Below are positions 24,999 to 59,236 of a stretch of 64,000 nt of DNA, in pieces. The position numbers were made by a program, and so were the translations under genes. A model generated the notes under the pieces. It did no database searches. It was not told the DNA's origin and saw only the letters and a program-made list of their open reading frames with translations. This DNA is from a virus (lineage: Duplodnaviria > Caudoviricetes): IMG/VR virus record IMGVR_UViG_3300032295_000548, positions 32,001-96,000 of that record. The stretch is one strand, 5' to 3'. The number at the start of each line of letters is the position of its first letter. Within the stretch, counting starts at the first letter, position 1.

Positions 24999-25001
24999 TC
25001 G

Positions 25002-30674: not shown

Positions 30675-30754
30675 AAAAGAAATACATCGTGGGTATACAT
30701 AAAACATATAACTGGATAGTCAAACAAATTGAGTCAGGCAATAATGATCTATGA
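30671..30754 (+). pseudogene. 27-codon chimeric remnant: start of the SGNH gene fused to the end of the epimerase gene
   Basis: MKKKYIVG|IH|KTYNWIVKQIESGNNDL*. Compare MSKKKYIVGLG (31823) and KTYNWISEQISRGQKDFE* (epimerase C-terminus). Confidence 0.75.
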
Positions 30755-36658: not shown

Positions 36659-37448
36659 ACGCATTTTTGCGTTTGGATGCAGTTTTACTGCATATGGCTG
36701 GCCTACATGGGCGGATATCATTGCAGTAGAAGCTAAAACAATTAGAACTGAACCTTACGGGTCTCAGTATTTTAACTATGGAGTATCAGGATTGGGTAAT
36801 CTAGGCATTATGGCTAGAATAGCAGAGGCAAATGCTAGATATAGATTCAATCAAGATGATTTAGTCATGGTCATGTGGTCTACATATAGTCGTGAAGATC
36901 GTTGGCTTAATGACGGATGGTATGCAATGGGTAATGTTTGGAATAGTCCATATCCTGATGAATGGGTTAAAGACTTTTGTGATCCAGTTGGACATATGAT
37001 TCGTGACCATGCTATTATTAATCATACTAACAAAATGTTAAAAGAATCTAAAGCTGATTCATTGATATTGCGTAGTGTACCCTTTAAACACAGCGATGCC
37101 ATTGAACTGGATGATCCAGAAAGAATTGAAACATTGTCTTTATTGTATCAACGTGAATATGATGATTTACCCATGTCTTTATATGATTTCTTAGGTCGTG
37201 ATTGGAGTAGAGATCCAGTTCCTTTTATAAATCACACTGGAAAATTACATAATGATTCGCACAGTAAACCAATAGTTTACTATGACTATTTGGAAGCATG
37301 TGGAATAGAACTTAGTAAATCTACATATGAATATGCTTTGGATAGCACTAATCTATTGGCTCGATGCAAAACACATCATGACATAAGAAATACTTTTGAA
37401 CTTCCGAATAGAAACTTATTAAGCAAAAACTTTCATCCATTGTTATGA
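36627..37448 (+). CDS. SGNH-fold protein
   Basis: AFGCSFT..GWPTW, NYGVSG.GN, late DSH. Confidence 0.6.
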   Translation: MHNNIDLKKYKRIFAFGCSFTAYGWPTWADIIAVEAKTIRTEPYGSQYFNYGVSGLGNLGIMARIAEANARYRFNQDDLVMVMWSTYSREDRWLNDGWYAMGNVWNSPYPDEWVKDFCDPVGHMIRDHAIINHTNKMLKESKADSLILRSVPFKHSDAIELDDPERIETLSLLYQREYDDLPMSLYDFLGRDWSRDPVPFINHTGKLHNDSHSKPIVYYDYLEACGIELSKSTYEYALDSTNLLARCKTHHDIRNTFELPNRNLLSKNFHPLL

Positions 37449-38542
37449 AATACATTTATATTCGAAGTGGTCAACTGTTAACAACTAATGACAATATTAG
37501 CCAGGACGCTATTGATAGTTCTAGGAATTACTTTAATGATGCACTATTGTCTCAAAATTTCGAAACCGGGGACACTATAATATTCACGTTAATAGTAGAA
37601 AAACTTAGCTCAATTTTCAAAGAAGTATTAGAGAACATGATTAATCTATGTGAAATGCATGCCAAATCAGTGAATGCACCTTGTCATTTTCTATTTCATG
37701 ATACAGCAAGAATGTTTAACATCAAAAAAGATAACTTACATTATATAGATACGTGGGCTTGGGTTACTTATAAACATAGTAAAAACGCACATAGAAAAAG
37801 ATGGTATCCAAATTCAGATAAAGCATTGTTCTTAGTAGGTAAGCCCCTAAGACTACATCGAATTGGTCTATTAGCTGAATTCAATAAACACAATATACTA
37901 GACTATTTGGACTTTACTTTTCATCTTCCACCCACTGTTGAAAATATAAATTCTATTAAGTTAATGGGCATTGCTGGATTAGATGATGACACCTATATAC
38001 ATAAACTGTTGGTTGACTTGCAAAGACCTAGTCTAGACCTTAACTTGGAGAAGCAAGCAATCCACACTGGGTTTGAATACACTGGCTTTCCTACTAACCT
38101 TAAATATTATAGAAATACTTGCATGAGCGTAGTAAGTGAGAATAGTTTTGAAATGCAACCCTATCACTTTACTGAAACGTATTCTACGCCCTATCTTACA
38201 GAAAAAATATTCCGTTCTATAATCAATCATCACCCGTTTATATTAATAGGTGATGTTGGTATCGATGAATATGTTGAGAGTTGTGGGTATAAAACATTCA
38301 ATAAGTTCTTTTTACCAATCACTGATTCATCTAGAAAACTTGCAGAAAACATTTTGACTTGGGCCGCAACGAGTGTAAAACACTTTATCGAACACAAACA
38401 TAAACATATAGATGAAATCAACGATATAGTAGAACATAATTATCAAGTGTTCATGTCTAAAGTACCAGCAGAAATTGATAATTTACAAACGAAGTTTCCC
38501 AAAATTGATTTAAATCACACTGAAATGTTTGGGCCACTATAA
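37445..38542 (+). CDS. GT10-like glycosyltransferase
   Basis: VVSENSF...YLTEKIFR...HPFI.IG; closest of the set to the GT10 ENS...YITEK motif. Confidence 0.55.
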   Translation: MKYIYIRSGQLLTTNDNISQDAIDSSRNYFNDALLSQNFETGDTIIFTLIVEKLSSIFKEVLENMINLCEMHAKSVNAPCHFLFHDTARMFNIKKDNLHYIDTWAWVTYKHSKNAHRKRWYPNSDKALFLVGKPLRLHRIGLLAEFNKHNILDYLDFTFHLPPTVENINSIKLMGIAGLDDDTYIHKLLVDLQRPSLDLNLEKQAIHTGFEYTGFPTNLKYYRNTCMSVVSENSFEMQPYHFTETYSTPYLTEKIFRSIINHHPFILIGDVGIDEYVESCGYKTFNKFFLPITDSSRKLAENILTWAATSVKHFIEHKHKHIDEINDIVEHNYQVFMSKVPAEIDNLQTKFPKIDLNHTEMFGPL

Positions 38543-38597: not shown

Positions 38598-41500
38598 ATG
38601 AAAAAAGTAGCAATGATTGGTGTAGGTAAATTGGGTCAAGATTGTGCAGAAGTTATGGCTGATGCAGGCTATGACGTTGTTGGTTATGACGTAGTGCCTA
38701 GGACACCAGCATTTCAAATGCGTAGTACAATAGCTGAAGCAGTTAGTGATAGAGATATCATTTTTATTGCCGCACCTACTCCGCATGATCCTATCTATGG
38801 TGGCGAAACCCCAACAAGCCATCTTCCAAACAAAGACTTTGACTATACGATAGTCACTGATATTTTAAAAGAGGTCAATAGACACGTTAATAGAAGTCAA
38901 TTAGTTGTCCTCATCAGTACAGTGCTACCCGGAACAGTTCGAAACATCCTAGAGCCTTGTATCACTAACGCAAGATTCATTTACAACCCTTACCTTATTG
39001 CTATGGGTACCGTAAAATGGGACATGATAAACCCAGAAATGGTAATTATCGGTACAGACGATGGTAGCCTTACAGGTGATGCTAGTGAATTAATTGACTT
39101 CTATAAAGTGTTTATGCAAAATGAACCACGTTATGAAGTTGGTACATGGGACGAAGCCGAGTCTATCAAAATCTTCTATAACACATTTATCAGTACTAAG
39201 CTTGCACTTGTCAACATGATCCAAGACGTTGCCGAAACTAACGGCAATATCAATGTTGACGTTGTATCTAATGCACTTGCAAAATCTACACATCGCATCA
39301 TGGGTCCTGCTTATATGAAAGCCGGGCTCGGGGATGCAGGAGCCTGTCACCCTAGAGACAATATTGCTCTGCGTTATCTAGCAGAACGTTTGGACTTGGG
39401 TTATGACTTGTTTGATTCAATCATGACCGCACGTGAAGTACAAGCTGAACGTATGGCATTGCGTTGCTTAAAGAATGGTCGTAACGTTACTATTATTGGT
39501 AAAGCGTACAAACCCGCAGTTCCTTATACAAATGGTTCTGCTAGTATGCTTATTGGCTACTACATTGAAAAGCATGGTGGCAACTTAAATTATTATGATC
39601 CTAATACGGATGACCACGATCTGCGTGAAGATTGGACTCATGTTTATCTAATTGGTTATTGGGAGAGTTGGGTCGAGAACATCAAATTTAAAGAGCCGGG
39701 GGTAGTAGTTATCGATCCATGGAGAAAGATAACTACTAACCAACATAGCGGTGAAATTATACATTATGGTGACACACGACTTAAACACAAGTACGAAGTC
39801 CCTGCAACTACTGTTGACACAATGATGCGTCAAGTGTTTGAAATGTTTCCGGACATTCGTCAGTATGAAAATAGTATTCACTTAATTGATGCTACAATCA
39901 ACTTTGAAACAATGTTTGTACGTAGACCAACTGAGGACATTGTTAAAGAAATGCGTGAAGCTAAAAAGAACGGCAAAAGCAAGTTTATATTCTTTGCGGC
40001 TACTGAAGCATTCATGACTCACGTACAAAGCAAGATTCAACGTATTGCTAATATTGTAGATGACATCATACCCGAAGAAGATATTATTGTAATTACCGGT
40101 GTTATAGACGCTGACCAAATATACAATAGATTAATAGATGAAAATGGTTGGAATAAACGTGTTACGTTAATGAATTGCCACTTCTTTAATTACATTACTA
40201 CAACATATGCTCAAGGATATGAGTACATAGGTGGTTATGATATACGTTTCCGTGGCAAAGTATTTACATGTTTCAATAAATTAAATCGTGAACACAGAAT
40301 GGTTCTTATGGAACGTATGTTGCGTGAGCATTTAGTTGACAAAGCTTGGTATAGTTTTGAGGGTGATTTCGACTTTGTAGAAAAGATACCTGGATTAAGT
40401 GATGTGCAATTTCCTTTCATTAAAATGAATGCAGGTCTTTTCCCTATGAGATTGAATATCACAAAAGATAGACATAATCCAGTGGACATACAACCTGATG
40501 ATTTGCAATATTATAAGGACAGTTATTTCAGTCTCATTACAGAGACATTATTCTATGACAAGGCTAAACCAAATCAACATCACAGACCTTTTGTCGAGGA
40601 TAGTTTATTCTTGACAGAAAAGACTTATCGTTGTTTTGCACTATTGCATCCATTTCTATTAATGGCTAGACCATATTGTTTGCGTGAATTACGTAGACAA
40701 GGTTATAAGACATTCAGTCCTTTCATTGATGAATCATATGATAATATAGAGAATGATGACTTGCGTTTTGAAGCTATTGTAAAAGAAACCAAACGTCTAT
40801 GTAACTTGACAGGTAATGATTGGGAAATATGGCAAACAGGAATTAAAGAAATTGTTGAATTCAATCAACAACATTTCCATAGTAATAAAGACTTTGCAAT
40901 AACCAAAGACTATCAATCGTTGTTTAGTAATGTAACAAGTACACCTGTTATTAACAAACCAATTGTTCAAGCACCAGTGGTGCAACCAATAGTTGTTCAG
41001 TCTAGTCCTATCGTAGAAGATTTACCTCCACCAAACTTAGATTTTAATACTGTTAAACCAGTAACTATTCTTGATGAATCTAGACAAGATCAGTTAGATT
41101 GGTCTAAGACAGAACACACATACGAGAACGGATTTGTATTACAATATCCTACACATATGGATGGCGGCGGATATGAGTTAAAAGATGAAATATTTTCATT
41201 GATTGATCGTACAGGTAAAGAACATTATGGTCGTGCATTAGAATGGTGTTCGGGTGTAGGTCCGCTTGGCTATGATTTATTGGATAGAAAGTATGTAGAC
41301 AGTGTTGCTTTTGTTGACTCTCACGGTCCTTCAATCAAAGCATGTCTAGCCAACGCAACATCTAATCGTATGTCAGACCGTGTTTCAGCATATGTATGTG
41401 ACAAGGTTATGCAAATACCGTCACAGGAAAGATTTGATATCGTTGTAGCAAATCCACCGCATAGTGGTGATAGACAAGCGTTTATTGATTCATTGGAACA

Positions 41501-41735
41501 TTTAAACTGTGTAGACAATACTTGCCGTTTAATAGTAGACGAAGGGTATGAAGCACTACAAGATTTCTATGCTAACATCAGAGATTATCTAAACCCCGGC
41601 GCTGATATATACATTACTACTGGTAGTAATCAAGAACATTATATTACATGGGCGGCAAAAGGTGGATTAAGATTTATGGGCTTTAGCCCCATGTCAAACA
41701 ACCCACATTGTGGCATCTATCATTTTAAGGTCTAA
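38598..41735 (+). CDS. Fusion: UDP-glucose/GDP-mannose dehydrogenase + GT10-like domain + class I SAM methyltransferase
   Basis: IGVGKLG, PTP, STVLPGT, KIFYNTF, GACHPRD; middle ITET...LTEK..HPF; P/V/Q linker; C-terminal EWCSGVG and ANPPH. Confidence 0.8.
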   Translation: MKKVAMIGVGKLGQDCAEVMADAGYDVVGYDVVPRTPAFQMRSTIAEAVSDRDIIFIAAPTPHDPIYGGETPTSHLPNKDFDYTIVTDILKEVNRHVNRSQLVVLISTVLPGTVRNILEPCITNARFIYNPYLIAMGTVKWDMINPEMVIIGTDDGSLTGDASELIDFYKVFMQNEPRYEVGTWDEAESIKIFYNTFISTKLALVNMIQDVAETNGNINVDVVSNALAKSTHRIMGPAYMKAGLGDAGACHPRDNIALRYLAERLDLGYDLFDSIMTAREVQAERMALRCLKNGRNVTIIGKAYKPAVPYTNGSASMLIGYYIEKHGGNLNYYDPNTDDHDLREDWTHVYLIGYWESWVENIKFKEPGVVVIDPWRKITTNQHSGEIIHYGDTRLKHKYEVPATTVDTMMRQVFEMFPDIRQYENSIHLIDATINFETMFVRRPTEDIVKEMREAKKNGKSKFIFFAATEAFMTHVQSKIQRIANIVDDIIPEEDIIVITGVIDADQIYNRLIDENGWNKRVTLMNCHFFNYITTTYAQGYEYIGGYDIRFRGKVFTCFNKLNREHRMVLMERMLREHLVDKAWYSFEGDFDFVEKIPGLSDVQFPFIKMNAGLFPMRLNITKDRHNPVDIQPDDLQYYKDSYFSLITETLFYDKAKPNQHHRPFVEDSLFLTEKTYRCFALLHPFLLMARPYCLRELRRQGYKTFSPFIDESYDNIENDDLRFEAIVKETKRLCNLTGNDWEIWQTGIKEIVEFNQQHFHSNKDFAITKDYQSLFSNVTSTPVINKPIVQAPVVQPIVVQSSPIVEDLPPPNLDFNTVKPVTILDESRQDQLDWSKTEHTYENGFVLQYPTHMDGGGYELKDEIFSLIDRTGKEHYGRALEWCSGVGPLGYDLLDRKYVDSVAFVDSHGPSIKACLANATSNRMSDRVSAYVCDKVMQIPSQERFDIVVANPPHSGDRQAFIDSLEHLNCVDNTCRLIVDEGYEALQDFYANIRDYLNPGADIYITTGSNQEHYITWAAKGGLRFMGFSPMSNNPHCGIYHFKV

Positions 41736-41746
41736 TGTCCAATTAC

Positions 41747-41776
41747 ATTGTACTACCTGTATAAGGGTAGTACAAT
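41747..41776. repeat. 11-bp perfect inverted repeat in the intergenic gap
   Basis: ATTGTACTACC-tgtataag-GGTAGTACAAT, with no U-tract. Confidence 0.7.
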
Positions 41777-41797
41777 AGTAGAAAATAGGAGTACATT

Positions 41798-44068
41798 TTG
41801 GATTTCACATTAAGATCATTGGCTGTTGACGAATTAAAGCCTAAGGAACGCCCCACAGAGGACATTGCTGATGCACGCCATCGTAGTATGATGGAAGCAA
41901 TCGCACCTTATGCTAAAGCAACAGTACAAAAGAACTTAACTCCTGTATATGTTGATTACAAGACAAGAAACACTAAGTTGGTTCTTGTACTATGTCCTGA
42001 ATGGTCACCCTATATGCCTCCGTTTAGTCTTGCACGATTAAGCGGTGTTGCTAAAAGTGCAGGATATGAGACACACATCATAGACTTGAATGTTAAAGCG
42101 TATAACGCATTTAAGAAAGACTGGTGGCCTAAGCAAAGAATCCCATTCAGACTATGGGATCCTAGTAGTTCTTGGCATTGGATGGGTGATACTTACATGA
42201 ATGATATTCACCCATTGTTAGGCCCTGAGGTACTAAGCCCGGCAGTAGATAAAATCATTGAAATGAATCCTGATGTAGTAGGCTTTAGTGTTTACTATAT
42301 TAGCGAAGAACCTACTAAGTGGATGTGTCAAGAAATTAAGCGTAGAGCACCTCACATTAAGATTGCTGTAGGTGGACCTAACGTACACAAGAGTTGGTTC
42401 GCAACACATCCATATTATGACTATGTTGTAGTAGGAGAAGGTGAGCAGAACTTGCTTGTCATGCTTGACGAGATAGAAGAAAAGAAAGAAGTAGAATTCC
42501 CACGTTATCTTACACAGCCTGAAGATCAACGTATCAACATTAATGGTTTGCCGATGCCTGACTATGAATCAATTGATTTTAGTCAGTATGAATTGCCTAA
42601 CGGAGTTAATAGTGAAATCAGTAGAGGTTGCACTGCTAAGTGTACATTCTGTGAAGAAACACACTTCTGGAAGTATCGTCAACGTCAAAGCGTTGACCTT
42701 ATCACCGAAGTCGAGTGGTTGTACTACAATAAGGGAACGGATATTATCTGGTTCATTGACAGTCTTATCAATGGTAACCCTAAAGAACTACGAGCTTTTG
42801 CTCTGGCACTAAAAGAAAAAGACTTGAAAGTTAAGTGGACAGGATACGCACGTTGCGATGGTCGAATGGATTTAGAATATCTACAAGACTTAGCAGCCGG
42901 TGGTGCAATCATGTTTAACTTTGGTATTGAATCAGGTTCACAGAAAGTACTTGATGACATGGCTAAGGGTGTTACTATCAAGGAGATGGAACAGAACTTT
43001 ATTGACTGTAAGAAAGTAGGCATCTGGGCCGCAACTAACTGGATCGTTGGATTCCCCACAGAAGACTACCAAGATTATAGTGACACTATGACATTCTTCT
43101 GGCGTATGCGTAACAATAACATTAACAATGCAGGATTGGGTGTTGGTTATGGTATGGGGCCTGAGACTATTGTAGGACAGAATCCACATAAGTTTAACAT
43201 CAGTTGGCACAAATATCAGGGTCATTGGATACGTAACGACTTTACGTTCGGTGGCACACACTTGATGATTCGTGTTAAGACCTGGCACATGTTTGCTGAC
43301 TTCTTACGTGGAGTAACTGATGTACCCATCAGTTATCCTGTGCGTCATGCATTAGAGAAAGAACACTATAAGATCAAACTTAATCATACAAACATGGCAA
43401 GAGACATTGAGTATGAGAAGTTTGACTACAATATCATCAAGCCTAACATCAATCCATTTGCTGATGCACTTGTAAACGAGATGTGGCCTTTCTTACGTAT
43501 GCTATGGAAGTGTCGTGGTGGATACGAAGCAGAGATACATTACAACCCTGATATTGATTTGAAAGAGTTTGGTACACAGTTTGGACCTGGCATGTTTAAT
43601 GCTGTCTATAAGTTTAAGATTAGTGACAGTGGCAAGTGGGAAGCAGACTTTGATATGAAGTTTGAACAGATTGATAACCCATTTGATGATAGAGAGCGCC
43701 CACCGTTAGGACGTAAAGGTCCGTTCTATGCACAAGATTACTCACGTATGATGAGCAACACGGCACTACGAGCCCGCAAACTTGCAAAGCCTACATGGAG
43801 TGACGCTGAAGGTCGTGATGGTCAAGACTTTAGTGATTTGTTGGACGAAGAAGCAGAATTAAACAAGAATGTAGATTTCAGCTTTGACTATCATTACATT
43901 GGTTATGGTAATTGGGGTAACTACAAAGACTTTGAAGTTGCAGTGTCTGATACTTCACGTGAAGTAATTCCTGAGAAGGAAGCAATGTCAGCACTTGATT
44001 TTGCTAAACAATCACAACCTATAACTATTTCTGTTGATAGTATCAAACGCAAGAAAGACAACGCATGA
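41798..44068 (+). CDS. B12-binding radical SAM enzyme
   Basis: AGGAG RBS with TTG start; PP.SLARL, GFSVY, VGGP, GEGE, EISRGCTAKCTFC, GIESGSQKVL..M.KG, IVGFPTE. Confidence 0.85.
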   Translation: MDFTLRSLAVDELKPKERPTEDIADARHRSMMEAIAPYAKATVQKNLTPVYVDYKTRNTKLVLVLCPEWSPYMPPFSLARLSGVAKSAGYETHIIDLNVKAYNAFKKDWWPKQRIPFRLWDPSSSWHWMGDTYMNDIHPLLGPEVLSPAVDKIIEMNPDVVGFSVYYISEEPTKWMCQEIKRRAPHIKIAVGGPNVHKSWFATHPYYDYVVVGEGEQNLLVMLDEIEEKKEVEFPRYLTQPEDQRININGLPMPDYESIDFSQYELPNGVNSEISRGCTAKCTFCEETHFWKYRQRQSVDLITEVEWLYYNKGTDIIWFIDSLINGNPKELRAFALALKEKDLKVKWTGYARCDGRMDLEYLQDLAAGGAIMFNFGIESGSQKVLDDMAKGVTIKEMEQNFIDCKKVGIWAATNWIVGFPTEDYQDYSDTMTFFWRMRNNNINNAGLGVGYGMGPETIVGQNPHKFNISWHKYQGHWIRNDFTFGGTHLMIRVKTWHMFADFLRGVTDVPISYPVRHALEKEHYKIKLNHTNMARDIEYEKFDYNIIKPNINPFADALVNEMWPFLRMLWKCRGGYEAEIHYNPDIDLKEFGTQFGPGMFNAVYKFKISDSGKWEADFDMKFEQIDNPFDDRERPPLGRKGPFYAQDYSRMMSNTALRARKLAKPTWSDAEGRDGQDFSDLLDEEAELNKNVDFSFDYHYIGYGNWGNYKDFEVAVSDTSREVIPEKEAMSALDFAKQSQPITISVDSIKRKKDNA

Positions 44069-44667
44069 AAGAAGTTCAGCAATTTGAAAGAATCATTGCT
44101 GACTATTACAATGCTCCATACGCTGTTGCTGTAGATTGCTGTACGCATGGTATAGAGTTAGCATTACGCTATACTAAGTTTGATAATGTAACATGCCCAT
44201 CTAACACATATCTAAGCGTTCCTATGACGTTTGAGAAACTAAACTTAGATTGGAGTTTCAATCAACAATATTGGAGTGACTATTATTACATAGGCAACAC
44301 AAATATCATTGATGCCGCAGTGTATTGGAAGAAGAACGGGTACATACCCAACACGTTTATGTGCCTTAGCTTTCAATATCGCAAACATTTGAATGTTGGT
44401 CGTGGTGGTATGATTCTAGTAGAACATGACTATGAATATGTTGCACTAAAGAAAATGAGTTATGATGGTCGTGTACCTGATACTCTCTGGGCCGAACAAG
44501 ACATAGATATGTTGGGATACCATTACTATATGACCCCAGAGACAGCAGCCTTAGGTATGATTAGATTCAATGACGTAAAGGATACTGATCCAAAACAATG
44601 GTCATATAAAGACTACCCTGACATAAGCAAGATGAAGGTTTTCAATGAACAAAATTCAAGTAAGTAA
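44065..44667 (+). CDS. Short DegT/DnrJ/StrS-type PLP aminotransferase
   Basis: YAVAVDCCTHG..LAL, IIDAA, LSFQYRKHL..GRGGMI (PLP Lys), GYHYYM..E.AA.G; only 200 aa. Confidence 0.75.
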   Translation: MKEVQQFERIIADYYNAPYAVAVDCCTHGIELALRYTKFDNVTCPSNTYLSVPMTFEKLNLDWSFNQQYWSDYYYIGNTNIIDAAVYWKKNGYIPNTFMCLSFQYRKHLNVGRGGMILVEHDYEYVALKKMSYDGRVPDTLWAEQDIDMLGYHYYMTPETAALGMIRFNDVKDTDPKQWSYKDYPDISKMKVFNEQNSSK

Positions 44668-45622
44668 GAATGAGTGGGATCCGCTAAAGAAAGTAATCGT
44701 AGGTCTAGCAGACTTTGCACGTATTCCTAATATGGATAAAAGTTTACGTACAGTAAACTATAGTCACGTTAAAGATGATAAAGACTTGCCGTCTGGTGGC
44801 TTATATCCAGTGCAAGTTATACAAGAAGCGAATGAAGATTTAGATAGATTATCAGAAGAACTAACCAAACTAGGAGTTGAAGTTGTTCGTCCAATGAATC
44901 GCCCCACTGATTACTATAACTATTGTCCTAGAGATTTAGCAACAATCATTGATACAAAGGCAATCGTTGCTCCTATGAGTTTGCAGTCACGTAAAGATGA
45001 TTACAAAAACATTGAGAGTGAATTAAAGAATATCTATTATGTCCCAAACGATCAAGGTGATAGTAACTATAACTTAGGTAGTATCGGTGACAAAGACACA
45101 TTAGCATTGCACGAAATTTATCCAAAGTTTGATGCGGCTAATTTGATTCGTGCTAACGATGACATACTTTATCTTGTTAGTAACTCCGGTAATCGTAAAG
45201 GAGCATATTACTTACAAGAGTTATTAGGTAGTAAGTACAGAGTACATCTATTAGAAGGTGTGTATAGTTACATGCACATTGATAGCACTGTTGCGTTCTT
45301 GCGTGAGGGCCTGATGCTATTGAACCCTGCTAGAATTCCTGATAAAAGCATACTACCTGCTCCCTTTAATACATGGGACGCAATCTATGCCCCCGAGCCA
45401 GTCGATATCGGTCACTTTCATGGCTTCAACAATGCTAGCCCTTGGGTTAGTGTCAATCTACTGTCTATCAATCCTAACTTGGTTGTATTAGAAGAACGGC
45501 AAACTAACCTAGCAAAAGAATTAAATAAGTACGGAATAGAATCATTGATGTTACCAATGAGACATGCTAGAACATTGGGCGGGTGCTTTCACTGTGTAAC
45601 ATTGGATTTGGTTAGAGGATAA
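44645..45622 (+). CDS. Amidinotransferase (glycine/inosamine-phosphate amidinotransferase family)
   Basis: NEWDPLK.VIVG, CPRD, FDAAN, HIDST, LGGCFHCVTLD (Asp/His/Cys triad). Confidence 0.9.
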   Translation: MNKIQVSKNEWDPLKKVIVGLADFARIPNMDKSLRTVNYSHVKDDKDLPSGGLYPVQVIQEANEDLDRLSEELTKLGVEVVRPMNRPTDYYNYCPRDLATIIDTKAIVAPMSLQSRKDDYKNIESELKNIYYVPNDQGDSNYNLGSIGDKDTLALHEIYPKFDAANLIRANDDILYLVSNSGNRKGAYYLQELLGSKYRVHLLEGVYSYMHIDSTVAFLREGLMLLNPARIPDKSILPAPFNTWDAIYAPEPVDIGHFHGFNNASPWVSVNLLSINPNLVVLEERQTNLAKELNKYGIESLMLPMRHARTLGGCFHCVTLDLVRG

Positions 45623-45624
45623 GA

Positions 45625-47400
45625 ATGAAACAAAAATGGACTAGGGGCCACATCAGTAGATTTTGGAATATAGATGATGTAAAGAAATTAGATTACGTCA
45701 GACAACCTATCATGGATTCTGAAATTGAAGAATGGAAAACTAAAGGCTATGACTATGTAAAAAGTTTTTCAGGGTCTATGTACGACAGTCGTAATCCTAT
45801 GCCGGAGTGGGTAAAAAGGTTTGACAACATATTTGACTTTAAAAATATGACGTATAATTTTTACAAGATGAGCCAACTAGAAATTATGCCAACTCACGTA
45901 GATCACTTTCAAACCTACATGAGGTTATTCAATGTCGAATATGAAAATGCAGTACGAATTCTTGTTATGTTGGAAGACTGGAAGCCTGGACATTATTTAG
46001 AAGTAGATGGTGTAGGCATTGTCAATTGGGTAGCAGGTGATTACTTCATGTGGGACAGCGATGTTCCACATGCCGCTAGTAACATTGGCACAGAAGATAG
46101 ATACACATTACAGATTACAGGTACAAAGATTACCTTTAATGATATTTCTAGTTTACATTGGTACAACATTCCTGATTTAAAAACTAAAAAAGAATCATTG
46201 GATGCACCCATAATGGCTAATATGTATAAGGCCATGAAAAAAACTACTCCCTATTACGTCTATATGTACAACAGGGAAATCACAGAACTAGAAAACATCA
46301 AGCATGATCCTGAAACTGTAAAAAAGTTAAATGAAACAGGAGTCGAGATTTATCTATATGAGCCATTGTGTTCTTATAGATCAACCGATACTCAACAGTA
46401 TCCTCCTCATGGTACAGTTCATTCATTGTTATTTTATAGCGAGTTTCACTATGACCAAGTCCAACGCAAATTTGATTTACGAGCGGTTGAACTAGACAGT
46501 ATTGAGAAATACATCGATAACAACGGGTTGAAGAACGTTACTGTAAAGTCATGTGATTATAATATTCAAAAATTCTACCTATATTATAGAGCAAAAATGC
46601 GTTTGGAAGCAGATGATTTGTTTGTCAAGTTTTTTGACATTAATGAATTTGAACAACTAGACGACAACAAAACCGGAGACTTTACTAAAAAGTTCATCAA
46701 CATGAATTGGCGATATGCCCCGCATCGTCAATTAGTGTCAGCTTATTTGGCTAACTATGAAGTAGATTCGTATCTAACTTGGTACTTTAAATCCGACATG
46801 AGTGTAGTTAGTGTAGAGCCATGGTATAGTATACATCATTGGTTGCAGAAGAATCCAAATGCATTTCAGAAGATGATTACCGGGTTTAATAAATTGAATT
46901 CTAAGTCACCTTGGAACATCGATTTGAAAGTCAAAGAACATACATTGATATCTCATAGCTACTTCAAAAAAATGTTTCCTGTAGGTATGATATTCGATCA
47001 CAAACTTCAAAACTTTGGTGATAACAAAGACCGATTGAAAACAGCATATGCTGATATTTTTGTTGATATTGTGAACGAATCTAGGTTTGCACAACCTACA
47101 GCAAACTACAGTGAAAAAGTTTATAGACCTATGTTCTATAAAAAACCATTTGTATTAGTGGCTCCCCCGCATACGTTGCACTATCTCAAAGAACAAGGGT
47201 TCGAAACATTTGGTGATTTTTGGGATGAATCATATGATGCACTGGAAGATCATGAATCCAGACTCTTTGCTATATTTGATATCATAGATCATATCAACAA
47301 CATGTCAATAGGTGATCTAAAGATTATCTACAATAAAATGTTGCCCATTTTAGAACACAATAAAAAGATTTTGTTAGAAAAATGTCCTAGTAGGTACTGA
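45625..47400 (+). CDS. Fusion: cupin/2OG-Fe(II) oxygenase-like domain + GT10-like domain
   Basis: N-terminal PTHVD...PHAASN.G...RYTLQ (HxD...H...R); C-terminal VNES..YSEK..KPFV, GFETF.DFWDESYD. Confidence 0.6.
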   Translation: MKQKWTRGHISRFWNIDDVKKLDYVRQPIMDSEIEEWKTKGYDYVKSFSGSMYDSRNPMPEWVKRFDNIFDFKNMTYNFYKMSQLEIMPTHVDHFQTYMRLFNVEYENAVRILVMLEDWKPGHYLEVDGVGIVNWVAGDYFMWDSDVPHAASNIGTEDRYTLQITGTKITFNDISSLHWYNIPDLKTKKESLDAPIMANMYKAMKKTTPYYVYMYNREITELENIKHDPETVKKLNETGVEIYLYEPLCSYRSTDTQQYPPHGTVHSLLFYSEFHYDQVQRKFDLRAVELDSIEKYIDNNGLKNVTVKSCDYNIQKFYLYYRAKMRLEADDLFVKFFDINEFEQLDDNKTGDFTKKFINMNWRYAPHRQLVSAYLANYEVDSYLTWYFKSDMSVVSVEPWYSIHHWLQKNPNAFQKMITGFNKLNSKSPWNIDLKVKEHTLISHSYFKKMFPVGMIFDHKLQNFGDNKDRLKTAYADIFVDIVNESRFAQPTANYSEKVYRPMFYKKPFVLVAPPHTLHYLKEQGFETFGDFWDESYDALEDHESRLFAIFDIIDHINNMSIGDLKIIYNKMLPILEHNKKILLEKCPSRY

Positions 47401-47402
47401 GT

Positions 47403-47410
47403 TATAAATA
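47403..47410 (+). promoter_or_regulatory. Late promoter, exact T4-type TATAAATA
   Basis: Intergenic, 22 bp before a small ORF. Confidence 0.55.
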
Positions 47411-47432
47411 CTTAGGATTTAAAGGGCAAACT

Positions 47433-47531
47433 ATGTTTATTATCAGATTTTTCAAAAACTTAATCAAAGAATACAAATACCGCAAGCGCATCAAAGAACT
47501 ACGTAAACGTGATCCATTTATCTATAAGTGA
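47433..47531 (+). CDS. 32-aa basic peptide upstream of the carbamoyltransferase (not in ORF track)
   Basis: MFIIRFFKNLIKEYKYRKRIKELRKRDPFIYK*; fills the gap and ends 2 nt before the next ATG. Confidence 0.65.
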   Translation: MFIIRFFKNLIKEYKYRKRIKELRKRDPFIYK

Positions 47532-47533
47532 TT

Positions 47534-49012
47534 ATGAACTACGTAGGAATCAGTAACGGCTTCCACGATGCCGGCATCTCTGTCGTTGGTCCCAATGGTG
47601 ATATCTTATTTGCAGGTCACAGCGAACGTTATAGCAAGCACAAACATGATAAAGACTTGTGCTTGTCCTTAGCACAGGATGCAAAAGCAAATATACAGGG
47701 TGAATCTGAGATTCACTACTACGAACGCCCTTTAGTAACAGCATTACGTCAGTTACGTGCGGCGCAACCTGTTAAGTTTGAAACAGCAAAATCACGCATT
47801 GGTAAAGAAATACTAAAAGAGTTTAATAATCCTAAGGTCGTTACTCATGAGCATCACTTGAGCCATGCGGCAGCAGGATTTCAAACAAGCCCATATGACG
47901 AAGCTACTGTCGTAATCATTGATGCGATTGGTGAGTTTGATTGTATCAGTATTTGGAATGCTTGGTATGACAACAAAGGTTATGCACAATACAAAAAGTT
48001 ATGGTCTAAAAAATACCCACACAGCATTGGTTTATATTACAGTGCAATGACTCAACATGTGGGCCTAAAGCCATTGGACGAAGAATATATTCTAATGGGT
48101 ATGGCTGCATATGGACAACCCATATACTTCAACAAGATTGAAGGGCAACTGTTAGAAAGTTCTACTAACTTAGAGTTCAAAGAGAACCTACATATTGGTG
48201 TACCTGAAGGATTCTTAGAAGGTGCTAACGAAATGGACGTTGCCGCAAGCGCACAAGCACTTGTAGAATACCTTATCAACACCGTTATGGGCAAGGCTCG
48301 TATGTTAGGTAAGAGTCGTAATTTAGTATATGGTGGTGGTGTAGCATTGAATTGTCTTGCTAATAGAAACTTAGGAGACTATTTCAGTGAGATGTGGATT
48401 GTTCCTAACCCCGGTGATTGCGGATCAAGCTTAGGTGCAGCCGCATTGGGTTACGGTAAGAAATTAAACTGGGTCGATGCTTTCTTAGGACACAACATTC
48501 CAGGCAATTATCCCAGTAATCGTATCATTGACGAACTAGTTAAGACTAAAATAGTAGGTGTAGCCTCAGGTCGTGCAGAGTTCGGTCCACGTGCATTGGG
48601 TAATAGGTCATTGCTTGCAGACCCCAGAGGTGATACAATAAAGGATACTGTAAATGAAATTAAACGCAGACAAAAATTCAGACCATTTGCGCCCATTATT
48701 TTGGAGGAGTATGTTCATGATTATTTTGATATGCCTCGTAACTGGCGTGATAGTAGGTATATGCAAGTCATCGCTACTTGCCGGCATCCTGACTTATTTC
48801 CTGCTATCGTTCACGCTGACGGCACTAGTCGGGTACAGACTGTTCCAAAAGATGGAAGTGGAGTCAGAGAACTCCTAGAAAAGTGGTATGTCTTGACTGG
48901 ATGTCCTATACTGTTAAACACCTCGCTTAATATCAGAGGCGAGCCAATGGTAAATGATAGGTCTGATGCTGATAGATTTGAAACCCTGTACAATGTTAAA
49001 GTGATATCGTAA
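47534..49012 (+). CDS. O-carbamoyltransferase (NodU/CmcH/TobZ family)
   Basis: GFHDA, ER.S..KHD, HHLSHAA, DAIGE, EY.LMGMAAYG, GGVALNC, EFGPRALGNRS, RPFAP, LNTSLN..GEP. Confidence 0.92.
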   Translation: MNYVGISNGFHDAGISVVGPNGDILFAGHSERYSKHKHDKDLCLSLAQDAKANIQGESEIHYYERPLVTALRQLRAAQPVKFETAKSRIGKEILKEFNNPKVVTHEHHLSHAAAGFQTSPYDEATVVIIDAIGEFDCISIWNAWYDNKGYAQYKKLWSKKYPHSIGLYYSAMTQHVGLKPLDEEYILMGMAAYGQPIYFNKIEGQLLESSTNLEFKENLHIGVPEGFLEGANEMDVAASAQALVEYLINTVMGKARMLGKSRNLVYGGGVALNCLANRNLGDYFSEMWIVPNPGDCGSSLGAAALGYGKKLNWVDAFLGHNIPGNYPSNRIIDELVKTKIVGVASGRAEFGPRALGNRSLLADPRGDTIKDTVNEIKRRQKFRPFAPIILEEYVHDYFDMPRNWRDSRYMQVIATCRHPDLFPAIVHADGTSRVQTVPKDGSGVRELLEKWYVLTGCPILLNTSLNIRGEPMVNDRSDADRFETLYNVKVIS

Positions 49013-52000
49013 ATGCTAAGAGATGTTTTTTATTTCGGAAATAAACCTAATGTTCACCCAAGAGAGCAACATGCAACAAGTTTAACAGACGCTAGAAGAA
49101 AAGCGTCAACAGAACATTTTTGGATTATTAACGAGTTCTGCGACTATACTAATTTTGATTGGGATTTTGATTTTGAATTCCTACCAGACGCAGACGTATG
49201 GGCAGAAGAACACAACAACGTATGGCCTAGCTATCATCAAAAGGATAGCGGTACATGGCTATGTCCAAAGAAACTAAGTGACGTTATTGTTTATCGTGCA
49301 GATGTTGATTCACTGAAACGAAAGAATAGCATCAATGACAACTGGAAGTTGTTAGATAATATTGATGTTACTAAGTGGGACTTTAGTTGGCATCCTGATC
49401 CAAGTGACCCTCCCTACATTTATAAGTGGGGTTCAAAGTATGCACCTGTTGAATTAAAATCGTGCATTGAATATCATGCTCCGGACGCTACTCAAATAAA
49501 ATACATGAACACTACAGTAGAATTGCTTCCTAATTGGGATTGCATTGTAGAGGTTCAGAAAGTAAATTACAATCATTGGGATATGAGTTGGAGACCAGAC
49601 CCACTCGATCCTCCCTTCATTTACGTATGGGGTAACAAATACATTGATGGACGTTTACGTTCAACACTAGAGTATCATGTGCCTGGAGCTACTGAAAAGA
49701 AATACATGAATGAGTTAGTACCTGTACTTCCTGAATGGGATCGTTGGGTACTAATACATGACATTGACAAAACATCATTTGACTTCTCTTGGAGACCAGA
49801 TCCAAGAGAGCCTGATTTTATATATGTGTTTGGTAATGAACAATATGAAGGTGGTGTAATGCCTACGATTGAATATCGTATGCCTGATGCTACTGAGAGA
49901 AAATATCTTCATGATATGAAGGCTAGACTTTCTCCTCATCCTGAAAAATTCGAACACTTAGAGAAAGCAGATAATATTGATTACAGTTGGGTTCCAGACC
50001 CAACTGCACCTCCTTATATCTATGTTTGGGGCAATCAATGGAACAAGCCAGAAGATAAGATTAGTATTCAATACGTAGTTGAAGGTGCAACAGAATACAA
50101 ATACATGGAAGAACGTTCAAAACGTAAACCATGCATGGATAATTGGGAAGTACCTGATGATGTTGATACTACTGGATTTGATTTTTCTTGGGAACCTAGT
50201 CCTGCTGATCCTGCATACATCTATGAGTTTGGTACTCAGTGGCAAAAGACAGGTGGACCTCGTTATGTAGTAGAAGGTGCCACAGAAATCAAATATGTAA
50301 GTACAATGAAAGTAACTAAGTTAGCAGACAAATCTAAGTTTGCTATCTTAGGCAATTTAAAAATTGCTAACTTTGATTATTCATGGCATCCTGACAGCAC
50401 AGAAGAACCATACATTTATGTCTTTGGTAATAACTTCTATCCGGGCGAAATTATGCCCACAATTGAATATGCAATGTCAGGCGCTACTAAAATCAAATAT
50501 GTAGAAAACGCAGTTGCAACATTAGGTATTGATAAAATTAATTGGGAAGTACCCAACAATGTTGATGCGTCATCGGTAGATTTTAGTTGGAAGCCTAATC
50601 CTAAAGACCCTCCCTACATCTATCAGTATGGTACACAACATCAAAAATCAGGAGGACCTCGTTACGTAGTTCCTGAGGCAACTGAAGTAAAGTATGTTGA
50701 TGTAAAAGCTAAAGCACTGCCACAACAAGACAAATTTACAGTGTTAGATGGTATCGTAGTTGACGAGTTTGATTACTCATGGCATCCAGATGATACCGAA
50801 GAAGCGTACATCTATCAATTCGGAAATAATCAGTATCCTGCTGAAATTATGCCCACTGTTGAGTATGCAATGCCTGGTGCTACTCAGATCAAATATGTAC
50901 ACGAAGTAGTAGCCAAGCTTGGTGTTGATATGACTAACTGGACAACACCTGATAACATTGATGCTACTGGTTTTGATTATAGTTGGAAGCCAAATCCCAA
51001 AGACCCCGCTTATATCTATGAGTTTGGTACTCAATGGCAAAAGACAGGTGGACCTCGTTACTTAGTAGAGGGCGCTGATGAAGTTAAGTATGTAACTACT
51101 CAAAGTGTTAAGGTTTTACCTACAACAGACAACTGGACTATTCCTACTAATTGCGATGTAACTGGCTTTGACTTTAGCTGGCATCCAGATGCAACTAGCC
51201 CACCGTATATCTATCACTTTGCTACTCAATGGGCATTGACAGGTGGACCTGTATATACAATGGATGGTGCTACTGAAATCAAGTACGTAGAACATCCAAG
51301 TGCAGTTGCACTTCCTAATCGTGATAACTGGGAAATACCCAAACACATAGATAGTGATGCGTTTGACTTCTCATGGCATCCATACGTAGAAGATCAACCT
51401 TACGTTTATATCTTTGGCACACAACATCAAAAGACAGGTGGACCTAAGTACATAACACCCGGTGTAATACCTACAAGCCCAGTCAAATATATTGACACAC
51501 GTATCATACGTGCGATACGTAAACCTAGCAAGAAAAACTTTGCAGTATTAAACAATTACAAAATTAAAGATTTTGATTGGTCATGGCATCCAGACGAAAC
51601 CGACGAGCCATACATCTATGTGTTTGGTAATACTCAGTATCCTGCTGAAATCATGCCGACTATTGAGTACGTAGTTCCTGGAGCAACACAGATTAAGTAT
51701 GTGACTGATGTTGTAGCAACATTAGACATTGACATGGCAAATTGGGAAGTTTCTAACAATACAGATGTAAGTAGTTTTGACTTTAGTTGGAAACCTAACC
51801 CTAAAGACCCACCTTTCATATATCAATTTGGTACTCAACATCAAAAGACAGGTGGACCTCGTTACGTAGTGGCTGATGCAGATGAAGTAAAGTATGTGAC
51901 TACTCAACAAGCAGTAGCACTACCTACTACTGAAAATTGGACTGTGCCCAATTATGTAGACACATCAGGATTCGATTTTAGTTGGCATCCAGATGACACA

Positions 52001-57154: not shown

Positions 57155-58206
57155 AATATATTACACATAACCAATGGTCAGGTGACCATAAGTTTGTTGA
57201 GTTCTACAATCGTGTAATCAGTGAAGATTTTGACAAGATCATAATCTTCTGTCAGAACGAATGGGAATGGTATAACCACGAACCCGAACATTGGCAGTTA
57301 CTACAAGATTATTGTAAGAAAATCAACAAGACAATTCATATAGTTGTTGGTGCCGCAGAAAAAGATTTCCCGGTACACATTGATAACGTTGACGTTTCAT
57401 ATTGGCCTACTTCATGGTTTGGTAGAACGTACATAAATTCAATGAGGATGAACAAAAGTCTATTCATAGATCCAAATGTTACCGTTGATTATGAACATCA
57501 CTTCTTTAACTTTAATCACAGACCAAAATCACATAGATGCAAAGTTATAGACCAACTAGCAAAGCATGATTTATTCAAGCATGGTGCTGTATCAATACAT
57601 GGTACAGAAGTTTATTCAGGAACAACGCATGAGGGATGGGAAATATTTCCATGGAAGCATTTTAAATACAAACCCATGTCATTGGATACTGCTGAATTCA
57701 CCAAAGATGCACACGGGCAGATGTTCGTAGTTACAGATATACATAGAAAGTCATTTTGTCAACTAGTTAGTGAAACAACAGATAGGTCATACTTTATAAG
57801 TGAAAAAACTATAATGCCCTTGTGTGCAGGTAAACCGTTTTTAGTAGCATCAAGACAAGGCTTTCACCAATTGCTGAAAGACATGGGGTTTGAGTTATAC
57901 GATGAAATCTTTGATTACTCATTTGATTCTATTGTTGATGAAGATAGACGTTACGAAATGCTAGTAGATAATTACAAAAGATTGTGTGAAATACCATTGA
58001 ATGAACTACCGGCATTAACAAAACAAATACATGAAAAGTTATTGCACAATAAGAATAGAGTAAAAGAGATTGTATATGAGCGAGGCAACTATCCGATGTT
58101 GTTGCAAGAGGTATTGAAGCATTACAAGACTACCAAAGAAGAAGTAGATCACTTGTTTTGTTCGTTGTATGAAGAAGAGGAAATGTTTGCATATCATGAG
58201 TGGTAA
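57151..58206 (+). CDS. GT10-like glycosyltransferase
   Basis: NHRP..HR, LVSETT..FISEKT.MP...KPFL, GFELYDEIFDYSFD. Confidence 0.55.
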   Translation: MKYITHNQWSGDHKFVEFYNRVISEDFDKIIIFCQNEWEWYNHEPEHWQLLQDYCKKINKTIHIVVGAAEKDFPVHIDNVDVSYWPTSWFGRTYINSMRMNKSLFIDPNVTVDYEHHFFNFNHRPKSHRCKVIDQLAKHDLFKHGAVSIHGTEVYSGTTHEGWEIFPWKHFKYKPMSLDTAEFTKDAHGQMFVVTDIHRKSFCQLVSETTDRSYFISEKTIMPLCAGKPFLVASRQGFHQLLKDMGFELYDEIFDYSFDSIVDEDRRYEMLVDNYKRLCEIPLNELPALTKQIHEKLLHNKNRVKEIVYERGNYPMLLQEVLKHYKTTKEEVDHLFCSLYEEEEMFAYHEW

Positions 58207-59236
58207 AAATTTAAACTACATTGGTCATAACCAATGGAATGGCCTTAACTTTCAAAATTTTTATGAGAAAGTGATTAACGGCAACTATGACAAAGTAATA
58301 TTATTTTCACAGAATGAGTGGGCACATCACCATCACAATCCTGAATATTTTCCTTTGCTACAAGAGCATATGAAAAGAATAGGTAAGCCCCTACATATCA
58401 TTACTTCGGCACATAAACATTTGTACCCAGTTGAACTAGAAAATACTCAAGTACATTGGTATGATACATATTGGATGTGCAAAACGTATGGACAATTATT
58501 ACACGTTAGTAAAGGTAATAAGATATCAATTGATCCCTACGAAACGGTAGATTACAAATATCATTATCTTTCTATGAACCACAGGCCCCATCTGCATCGT
58601 TGTTTGTTAATTGATTTGTTGGCTAAACACGATTTGATGAAGTATGGTGCTATATCATTACACAATGCACCAGTACCTGAACTGTATCAATGGAAATATT
58701 TTGATTACAAACCACTAATATTAGATCAACAATACTCCACTGAAAAAAATTATAACCTTGTACCTGACCAATATTATGAATCGTTCGTACAACTGATAAG
58801 TGAAGCTTCAGGTGATACTATAATGATGTCTGAAAAAACAGCAATACCGTTATTGTTAGGTAAACCTTTCTTAGTTGCTAGTCAGATGCATTTCCATAAG
58901 TTCTTGAAAGGACTAGGATTTGAGCTATATGATGAAATATTTGACTACAGTTTTGATGACGAACCGAACGAAGAAAAAAGATATGAAATGCTTTTGGAAA
59001 ACTTCAAGAGATTGTGTCAAATACCGTTAAACGAACTAACTCAATTACAACAACGCATAGCTAACAAAGTATTGTTTAATAAGAAACATGCCAAATCATT
59101 GGTATTTGACACTACAACATGCCCAGAACTAGCTATGGAAGTTATCAATTACTACAAAGATACCGGAACTATCATAGACAAGCACTTGATAGATGACTAC
59201 GAAAACTGTATAATGTACAAAGACCATGAGATTTGA
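58196..59236 (+). CDS. GT10-like glycosyltransferase, close paralog of 57151
   Basis: Shares YI.HNQW.G, FY..VI...DK.I.F.QNEW, NHRP.HRC and SEKT..P...KPFLVAS. Likely start is ATG 58196. Confidence 0.55.
   Translation: MSGKNLNYIGHNQWNGLNFQNFYEKVINGNYDKVILFSQNEWAHHHHNPEYFPLLQEHMKRIGKPLHIITSAHKHLYPVELENTQVHWYDTYWMCKTYGQLLHVSKGNKISIDPYETVDYKYHYLSMNHRPHLHRCLLIDLLAKHDLMKYGAISLHNAPVPELYQWKYFDYKPLILDQQYSTEKNYNLVPDQYYESFVQLISEASGDTIMMSEKTAIPLLLGKPFLVASQMHFHKFLKGLGFELYDEIFDYSFDDEPNEEKRYEMLLENFKRLCQIPLNELTQLQQRIANKVLFNKKHAKSLVFDTTTCPELAMEVINYYKDTGTIIDKHLIDDYENCIMYKDHEI

Follow-up and report, generated by a model that had tools for sequence, protein, structure and literature searches.

The stepwise conversion of a keto group into an amine and then into a guanidino group is precedented by the streptidine branch of streptomycin biosynthesis, in which StsC, an L-glutamine:scyllo-inosose aminotransferase of the DegT family, is followed by StrB1, an L-arginine:inosamine-phosphate amidinotransferase. 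In the Arn pathway (Ugd, ArnA, ArnB), an aminotransferase of the DegT family likewise works together with a UDP-glucose dehydrogenase to place the cationic amino sugar L-Ara4N on lipid A and so to alter the charge of the surface, and the carbamoyltransferases TobZ, NovN, GdmN and NodU share a Kae1-like and YrdC-like architecture with an HHxxH metal site. In pelagimyophages and cyanomyophages, large and variable "host recognition cluster" islands situated beside tail-fibre genes carry glycosyltransferases (GTs), sugar-nucleotide enzymes, radical S-adenosylmethionine (SAM) enzymes and 2-oxoglutarate (2OG) oxygenases (PMC7029224, PMC12801897). Within the literature searched, only the paper on the Synechococcus phage S-SCSM2R names genes of the kind considered here in a phage, where an "AHBA synthase", an amidinotransferase and a radical SAM enzyme were labelled "antibiotic synthesis genes" without a test (PMC12801897). 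Here we analysed a window of 64,000 nucleotides, bases 32001-96000 of the single 139,446-base virus record IMGVR_UViG_3300032295_000548 (about 40% complete by CheckV), which belongs to a freshwater jumbo phage of ~350 kb and has an island of this kind beside its tail-fibre genes. We established the identities of five adjacent genes in this window, the intactness of their catalytic residues, their co-conservation in other viruses and the phylogenetic placement of one of them. Our comparative analysis revealed that a 2OG oxygenase, a half-size DegT-family enzyme ("mini-DegT") and an amidinotransferase constitute a conserved, phage-specific unit.

As in the streptidine branch, the phage genes represent the same two families in the same logical order, and StrB1 is the best solved match of the phage amidinotransferase. 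The phage system differs from that branch in that the viral amidinotransferases form a separate clade with a long stem and are shorter, with loop deletions, in that its aminotransferase is half-size, and in that an Fe/2OG oxygenase would serve as oxidant where streptidine formation uses an inositol dehydrogenase dependent on NAD. The phage record yielded neither a cyclitol synthase nor a kinase or phosphatase, and the genes lie in a GT-rich phage operon, not in an actinomycete gene cluster. Compared with the Arn pathway, the phage has neither an ArnA-type decarboxylase/formyltransferase nor an ArnC or ArnT membrane transferase, and its added amidinotransferase would carry the amine on to a guanidine. 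The phage carbamoyltransferase shares the architecture and metal site of the TobZ group, is ~80 residues shorter than TobZ and is paired with a conserved micro-ORF (open reading frame) that is not known from the bacterial enzymes. S-SCSM2R possesses the same cassette of mini-DegT, oxygenase and amidinotransferase (ORF305, ORF308 and ORF309), in a gene order other than that of the window phage, in which the oxygenase is fused. The papers on the phage islands list such genes singly, under lipopolysaccharide (LPS) or antibiotic synthesis, and the cassette, its spread and its predicted chemistry went unrecognised (PMC7029224, PMC12801897). Neither the three genes as a joint cassette nor their distribution appears to have been described before, and the same holds for the half-size DegT and for the guanidinylation of a glycan that we predict; no paper in the literature searched uses the term guanidino sugar.

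The co-conservation was assessed in 80 IMG/VR loci with the amidinotransferase (designated by L numbers below), to which all proteins of the window were compared by tblastn. Since many of these loci are near-duplicates, they were dereplicated at 90% amidinotransferase identity into 27 lineages, and genes were counted within 6 kb of the amidinotransferase. The mini-DegT was present in 72 of the 80 loci and 23 of the 27 lineages, which supports the StsC/StrB1-like keto-amino-guanidino logic proposed for these genes in the original prediction, made from the sequence of the window. The 591-aa protein that carries the oxygenase domain found a counterpart in 76 loci, mostly in the shape of a stand-alone oxygenase of ~167 aa, the form in which the enzyme occurs in most related phages (63 loci); an oxygenase was counted in 21 lineages. 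Both mini-DegT and oxygenase accompanied the amidinotransferase in 19 lineages. The carbamoyltransferase was found in 33 loci and in 6 lineages, and a B12 radical SAM enzyme of the window type in 12 loci and in 7 lineages. Thus, out of the five-gene tailoring set initially proposed, the amidinotransferase and DegT stand as core members, the oxygenase joins them as the third, and the carbamoyltransferase and the B12 enzyme are lineage-specific extras. The initial proposal had been staked on co-conservation with GTs, and some GT-like gene was indeed found in 25 of the 27 lineages, with GT-A-like genes of 277 aa in 51 of the 80 loci.

The order of the genes varied between genomes: DegT-oxygenase-amidinotransferase-GT-carbamoyltransferase in T4-like contigs, amidinotransferase-oxygenase-TEK domain (a putative GT domain described below) in jumbo-type contigs, and oxygenase-DegT-radical SAM-GT-GT-amidinotransferase-UDP-glucose dehydrogenase (UGDH) in a third arrangement. 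The persistence of the partners despite this shuffling indicates a functional link, and does so more strongly than synteny alone.

The cultured cyanophage S-SCSM2R carries the cassette among annotated GTs. Its run consists of a GT, a GT25, another GT, the "AHBA synthase" (195 aa), a radical SAM enzyme, a GT, a 2OG oxygenase (164 aa), an amidinotransferase 62% identical to that of the window, and a GT2; the GT25 and the GT2/GT7C of this run were confirmed with Pfam. The same phage encodes KdsA and KdsB, enzymes that make the LPS sugar Kdo. ORF266 of S-SCSM2R (L162:27354-28247), annotated as a glycine amidinotransferase of 297 aa and without a Pfam match, was considered as a second homologue and not detected as one, since tblastn matched one place only, ORF309. 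ORF266 is neighboured by KdsA, KdsB and two 2OG oxygenases and was detected in the virion proteome (PMC12801897).

The amidinotransferase (325 aa), a member of the pentein-fold AGAT/StrB1 family, gave zero matches to Pfam and NCBIfam, and its similarity to known enzymes came from phmmer searches against the Protein Data Bank (PDB). StrB1 (1bwd) was matched with an E-value of 1.2e-63 (residues 8-324 against 7-339), followed by HsvA (2.7e-38), AGAT (2.4e-30) and SxtG (6.3e-29). Residues D97, D163, H211, D213, R230 and C317 align with the catalytic and arginine-binding residues D108, D179, H227, D229, R246 and C332 of StrB1 and are invariant in 31 of 31 viral sequences; therefore, as judged from these alignments, the viral enzyme should be active with L-arginine as the donor. 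Relatives are widespread, with 201 IMG/VR stretches at 57-92% identity and more than 6,500 clusters (90% identity) matched in a large protein collection. The closest cellular amidinotransferases share 37-42% identity, as found with two conserved peptide patterns in 185,579 species genomes, a search that was not exhaustive.

In a rapidly calculated maximum-likelihood phylogeny (54 viral and 73 cellular sequences, no AGAT or SxtG outgroup), the viral amidinotransferases were monophyletic (SH-aLRT 100) on a long stem of 1.99 substitutions per site. Their sister group consists of four actinomycete sequences of the StrB1 type (SH-aLRT 100), and the viral clade lies outside this group, not nested in it. 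For one of the four (L084, from Actinomadura), the score was 404 bits with StrB1 and 230-241 bits with HsvA, SxtG and AGAT. The phylogeny, which had been named at the outset as a way of checking the assignment, thus points to the StrB1 type and not to AGAT, SxtG or HsvA. A carbamoyltransferase lies within 6 kb of the amidinotransferase in three of the four actinomycete sister loci. Mini-DegT and oxygenase partners were found beside none of the cellular amidinotransferases in 80 bacterial loci, most of which carry SbnA/SbnB-like genes and a nonribosomal peptide synthetase (NRPS), and acquisition of the whole phage cassette from a bacterial cluster was for that reason rejected.

Most of these cellular relatives (L086-L161; 37-40% identity), from Alpha- and Gammaproteobacteria, Planctomycetes and others, belong to a conserved cluster of their own. 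There, a gene of the ornithine-cyclodeaminase family and one for a PALP enzyme make up a diaminopropionate pair of the SbnA/SbnB kind, and a further gene encodes an NRPS-like protein of ~1,430 aa with AMP-binding, peptidyl-carrier (PCP) and hexapeptide parts (examples: L112:1706-6019, L148:8850-9866, L122:7891-8928). This bacterial cluster probably represents an uncharacterised natural-product pathway for a guanidino amino acid.

The mini-DegT was recognised by the DegT_DnrJ_EryC1 model PF01041 with 59.3 bits (cut-off 19.8), so that the family named in the original prediction is right, with the qualification that the protein is half-size, 200 aa versus a family length of ~370 aa. Characterised members of the DegT family act on keto-sugar nucleotides or inososes. 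Lys107, the Schiff-base lysine (motif SFQYRK), and Asp83, the aspartate that contacts N1 of pyridoxal phosphate (PLP; motif IIDAAV), are invariant in 44 viral homologues, which all measure 194-203 aa after removal of spurious ORF extensions at the N-terminus and have a mean column identity of 61%. The AlphaFold model (pLDDT 94) corresponds to the large PLP domain only (TMq 0.65-0.72, TMt ~0.39 against chains of 360-390 residues), and the folds matched are those of GDP-perosamine synthase, ArnB, WbpE, AHBA synthase and BtrR. Because at least 7,998 clusters (90% identity) of the same length, ~195-200 aa, occur in metagenomes, some of them on contigs of 244-360 kb, the half-size DegT is a stable and abundant form and not a truncation. 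On the strength of its family and cofactor residues it is predicted to be an aminotransferase. A DegT of 200 residues would be the smallest known member of the family and represents a good structural target. It may have lost nucleotide-binding parts because its substrate is a sugar that has already been transferred to a polymer.

The third core member is the N-terminal domain (residues 1-175) of the 591-aa protein encoded at 45625-47400 (+). This two-domain gene had been described as a cupin-GT fusion; a fused gene it is, in which the "cupin" is, by model and motif, an Fe(II)/2OG oxygenase and not a generic cupin, and the "GT" is a weakly supported family discussed below. In VIA-align comparisons its double-stranded beta-helix matched PiuC-type enzymes best (Z 13.8-14.6, root-mean-square deviation 2.6-2.9 over 145-153 residues), along with the sugar epimerase SnoN (Z 13.3) and prolyl hydroxylases (Z ~12.5). 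The iron triad H91-x-D93...H149 and R159 are invariant in 23 homologues. The Pfam model Asp_Arg_Hydrox (PF05118) gave 19.3 bits, under its cut-off of 22.6, and the structural match to AspH (Z 10.5-10.8) was no better than that to many other 2OG oxygenases.

Fusion of the oxygenase to the TEK-motif domain was seen in the window and L001; in L006, L007, L030, L031, L033, L061, L064, L066 and L068 the two are encoded by adjacent separate genes. The occurrence of the pair in both forms ties the action of the oxygenase to the function of the TEK domain, and the fusion suggests a coupling of tailoring to sugar transfer. The model of the TEK domain (~400 aa, residues ~185-591) displays alternating beta/alpha elements, with pLDDT mostly >85, and the 36 family members compared all share the E and K of its (S/T)EK motif. 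A GT10-like glycosyltransferase is weakly supported by this motif, by an hhalign match of 20% probability to a Pfam-verified phage GT10, in register at the E..(S/T)EK motif, and by the Pfam GT10 model, which matches one of the 36 members (E 3.7e-4). Several other searches were less telling: the Pfam GT10 model had zero matches in the whole phage record and in control genomes alike, and this comparison is hence uninformative; the TEK profile returned chance matches only (E >1) from PDB sequences; PDB fold searches (Foldseek and others) with the 591-aa protein were filled by the oxygenase domain, so that the TEK half was barely probed; and a protein-atlas lead to GT10 scored 0.78-0.79, under the trusted level. 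Matches of the domain in BFVD were many and to uncharacterised phage proteins, with one family member there from a mimivirus-like genome.

The TEK family is viral-only and divergent in its N-terminal halves, with at least eight copies in the island. Its paralogues there are ORFs of 446, 372, 356, 351, 355 and 365 aa and the middle of a 1045-aa fusion, and copies lie at 27237-28577, 29556-31821, 37445-38542, 40000-40900 (the middle of the 1045-aa ORF), 46150-47400 and 57151-59236.

From these observations we infer a pathway in which the unit would oxidise, transaminate and amidinate a sugar of a cytoplasmically built phage glycan, with carbamoyl and methyl groups as lineage-specific extras, a reading to which we give an even chance; that inference extends to the sequence of the steps, the sugar as substrate, what the oxygenase does and the target. 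The oxygenase would generate a keto (or hydroxyl) position by oxidising a C-H or C-OH of the sugar. Alternatively, it might hydroxylate the sugar and leave formation of the ketone to a BtrN-like radical SAM dehydrogenase of the SPASM/twitch type; such genes are frequent in the same islands, and SPASM-type radical SAM genes were matched in 37-38 of the 80 loci. The mini-DegT would then turn the keto group into an amine, and the amidinotransferase would shift the amidino group of L-arginine onto this amine with release of ornithine, the outcome being a cationic guanidino sugar. In the window phage, the B12 radical SAM enzyme would probably add a C-methyl group, and a hydroxyl could be O-carbamoylated. 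The starting sugar is possibly derived from UDP-glucuronate, by analogy with Ugd, ArnA and ArnB; this lead is suggested by the UGDH directly upstream of the studied genes and by those that six other loci (L006, L007, L030, L069, L070, L072) carry at a distance of 9 nt to 1.3 kb from their amidinotransferase gene. No membrane-spanning segment was predicted in 33 proteins checked, the whole island included, and no flippase, polymerase, ligase, priming transferase or polyprenyl-phosphate GT was seen in the island; assembly would therefore be cytoplasmic, with an acceptor that is either soluble or located at the membrane face.

Several observations weigh against this pathway. The mini-DegT lacks the entire C-terminal domain, and a further ~50 residues of the large domain are missing between positions 60 and 99 of the query, so that it has the cofactor features of fold-type-I enzymes and not their two-domain architecture of ~360-400 aa; owing to these missing parts its aminotransferase activity is only predicted. 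We know of no amidinotransferase that takes an amino sugar or a sugar nucleotide, and the acceptor of the best-characterised relative is a phosphorylated aminocyclitol. The fold of the oxygenase resembles protein prolyl hydroxylases as well as sugar-tailoring enzymes (Z 12-14), and judging from this fold its substrate could be a protein or an amino acid instead. In addition, DegT and amidinotransferase occur without the oxygenase in one lineage (L038, L043, L062, L073), an enzyme that would form a classical 4-keto-6-deoxy sugar is absent beside the cassette in most loci, and the GT identity of the TEK domain is not demonstrable.

As the acceptor of the proposed guanidino sugar, a phage structural protein is modestly favoured, because the operon continues from tail-fibre genes and giant ORFs, and a host envelope glycan is nearly as likely. 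That the same chemistry serves to remodel precursors of the host's LPS core, O-antigen or capsule at the inner membrane face, changing the surface charge much as the Ugd/ArnA/ArnB route does and, for example, blocking superinfection or keeping progeny from sticking to debris, is the most serious competitor and has in our estimate a minor, clearly less than even, probability. In published accounts, the GT islands that lie beside fibre genes in pelagi- and cyanomyophages are taken to modify the O-chain of the host (PMC7029224, PMC12801897). KdsA and KdsB in S-SCSM2R and its GT25 and GT2 types, typical of lipooligosaccharide and LPS, agree with such a role, as does the Arn pathway, in which the UGDH and DegT families both take part and whose ArnB is one of the best matches to the mini-DegT fold. 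The absence from the island of the above-mentioned export and assembly functions and of any membrane protein, together with the position of the operon directly behind tail-fibre genes and giant structural-type ORFs, speaks against it; these points only weaken the case, because host machinery could export the product.

Improbable to a greater degree is a pathway with no sugar substrate at all, in which the oxygenase would hydroxylate a protein residue or free amino acid in the manner of prolyl, lysyl or aspartyl hydroxylases, the PLP enzyme and the amidinotransferase would build or modify a guanidino amino acid, and the GTs would act separately. The matches of the oxygenase to prolyl hydroxylases, a viral collagen prolyl hydroxylase and a mimivirus lysyl hydroxylase (Z 10.8-12.5) fit this possibility, and the hydroxylase-GT fusions LH3 and mimivirus L230, which hydroxylate and then glycosylate protein lysines, offer a parallel for the fused gene. 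The cellular relatives of the amidinotransferase, too, are mostly found beside SbnA/SbnB-like diaminopropionate enzymes and an NRPS, a setting of amino-acid chemistry. However, the viral clade is sister to the StrB1 type and not to the NRPS-linked clade, the NRPS-linked cellular loci have neither mini-DegT nor oxygenase, and the aminotransferases of the DegT family have sugars or cyclitols as substrates.

The original prediction had also raised, as its more speculative option, a diffusible aminoglycoside-like metabolite. Such a pseudo-oligosaccharide with guanidino, carbamoyl and methyl groups, acting as an antibiotic or signal, is very unlikely in our view. The families involved do parallel StsC, StrB1, TobZ and the GenK-type B12 radical SAM enzymes of streptidine, tobramycin and gentamicin tailoring, and both the StrB1-type sister group and the label "antibiotic synthesis genes" chosen by the S-SCSM2R authors are in its favour (PMC12801897). 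On the other hand, neither a cyclitol-forming enzyme of the DHQ-synthase-like or inositol-phosphate-synthase kind nor a GFO/IDH/MocA dehydrogenase or a sugar nucleotidyltransferase was found in the 139 kb available, ~40% of the genome; PF01761, PF07994 and PF01408 had no match in this record and did match control genomes. There is likewise no inosamine-phosphate kinase or phosphatase, exporter or self-resistance gene, and a polymeric glycan agrees better with the more than 10 GT-like domains and with the location of the genes behind those for the tail fibres.

Phages are known to hypermodify thymidine or cytidine by means of GTs, PLP enzymes and radical SAM enzymes. The S-SCSM2R authors raised glucosylation of DNA as one option (PMC12801897). 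Evasion of restriction through a glycosylated and guanidino-decorated base in the phage DNA is nevertheless the least credible of the explanations, as the operon showed no gene for a hydroxymethylase or a DNA kinase and none of the aGPT-Pplase type, the GT25, GT2/GT7C and GT10/11-like enzymes are glycan-building types, and the genes are located among fibre genes and not replication genes.

If the proposed tailoring of a phage-made glycan is taken to its widest form, thousands of aquatic phage lineages would install guanidino groups on glycan sugars, a modification undescribed in any organism; we regard this general statement as possible, though somewhat doubtful. If true, a strongly basic, arginine-like group would join the known decorations of glycans, abundant freshwater and marine phages would spend host arginine on it, and the finding would be relevant to the way in which phages or infected cells adjust their surface charge, their adsorption and their recognition. 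The published label "antibiotic synthesis genes" would accordingly be shifted towards glycan tailoring.

The coordinates of the five genes and their domains, together with the neighbouring features, are collected in Table 1. All five lie at 41798-49012 on the plus strand, tightly packed or overlapping and with every catalytic motif intact. The gene positions and the overlap of DegT and amidinotransferase genes originally reported were confirmed; this overlap measures 23 nt, and the radical SAM and DegT genes overlap by 4 nt. The family assignments to DegT, amidinotransferase, B12 radical SAM enzyme and carbamoyltransferase are borne out by Pfam, phmmer and motifs. The start of the oxygenase fusion lies 2 nt past the amidinotransferase stop.

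Table 1. Positions in the window of the cassette, its lineage-specific extras and adjoining features.
Feature	Positions	Strand	Basis
Half-size DegT-family PLP enzyme (mini-DegT), 200 aa, core member	44065-44667	+	Pfam PF01041
StrB1-type L-arginine-dependent amidinotransferase, 325 aa, core member	44645-45622	+	phmmer to PDB 1bwd
Fe(II)/2OG oxygenase domain, residues 1-175 of the 591-aa protein, core member	45625-46149	+	structural alignment, motif
C-terminal TEK-motif domain, ~400 aa, putative GT-B or GT10-like glycosyltransferase	46150-47400	+	motif, weak profile match
Class-B (cobalamin-binding) radical SAM enzyme, 756 aa, lineage-specific add-on	41798-44068	+	Pfam
NodU/CmcH/TobZ-family O-carbamoyltransferase, 494 aa, lineage-specific add-on	47528-49012	+	Pfam, PHROG 1601
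32-codon ORF before the carbamoyltransferase	47433-47531	+	GTGA stop/start overlap
UDP-glucose/GDP-mannose dehydrogenase + TEK-type domain + methyltransferase fusion, 1045 aa	38598-41735	+	Pfam, NCBIfam, PHROG 9148

Among the two extras, the radical SAM enzyme exceeded the Pfam cut-offs for both its N-terminal B12-binding domain (47.1 bits) and the following Radical_SAM domain (65.2 bits), the latter with a CxxxCxxC motif at C278-x3-C282-x2-C285. The nearest NCBIfam models were methylases of the RiPP (ribosomally synthesised and post-translationally modified peptide), PhpK and HpnR types, all below cut-off, and no equivalog was reached; as far as these families indicate, the enzyme is a probable C-methyltransferase. 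The carbamoyltransferase was matched over cut-off by Carbam_trans_N (128.4 bits) and Carbam_trans_C (163.1 bits) and by PHROG 1601 (E 7e-94), and its best solved relatives are NovN, GdmN and TobZ (E 5e-49 to 5e-35). Its HHxxH metal motif reads HHLSH (residues 109-113) and aligns with HHLAH of NovN. Translation may start at the ATG at 47534 in place of the GTG at 47528.

The 128 nt before the carbamoyltransferase, formerly taken for an intergenic gap, in fact hold the conserved 32-codon ORF. It is 97% identical in L001, and its ending RI(K/E)ELR(K/R)RDPFIY(K/R)-stop is kept in ORFs of 54-58 codons in L033 and L061, which are located upstream of the same carbamoyltransferase subtype.

Nearly all ORFs of at least 100 aa in the window are on the plus strand, and the gene run passes from fibre-like genes and an ORF of giant size (>5,370 aa) to a ~40-kb block that encodes radical SAM and sugar-nucleotide enzymes along with unannotated paralogues. 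The sugar-nucleotide genes of the island comprise a UDP-sugar dehydrogenase and an NDP-sugar epimerase/dehydratase, and the 1045-aa dehydrogenase fusion adjoins the studied genes directly upstream. The even GC content of the block (0.33-0.41) gives no sign of recent insertion. Counts of promoter and terminator signals over 41000-49600 were at or below shuffled expectation and provide no evidence for internal units; a gene for 2713 aa begins at 49013, directly after the carbamoyltransferase stop. Comparison with a phage collection at the DNA level gave three short matches only.

Just past the glycan island, a gene for a Gram-negative porin (Porin_4, E 2e-18) is present at 60104-60985 (+). The usual place of the SPASM iron-sulfur domain is the C-terminus. 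Two radical SAM enzymes of the window, encoded at 23769-26273 (+), carry it N-terminally, ahead of the SAM core (Pfam, residues 14-82), and homologues of these two enzymes were found in 37-38 of the 80 viral amidinotransferase loci.

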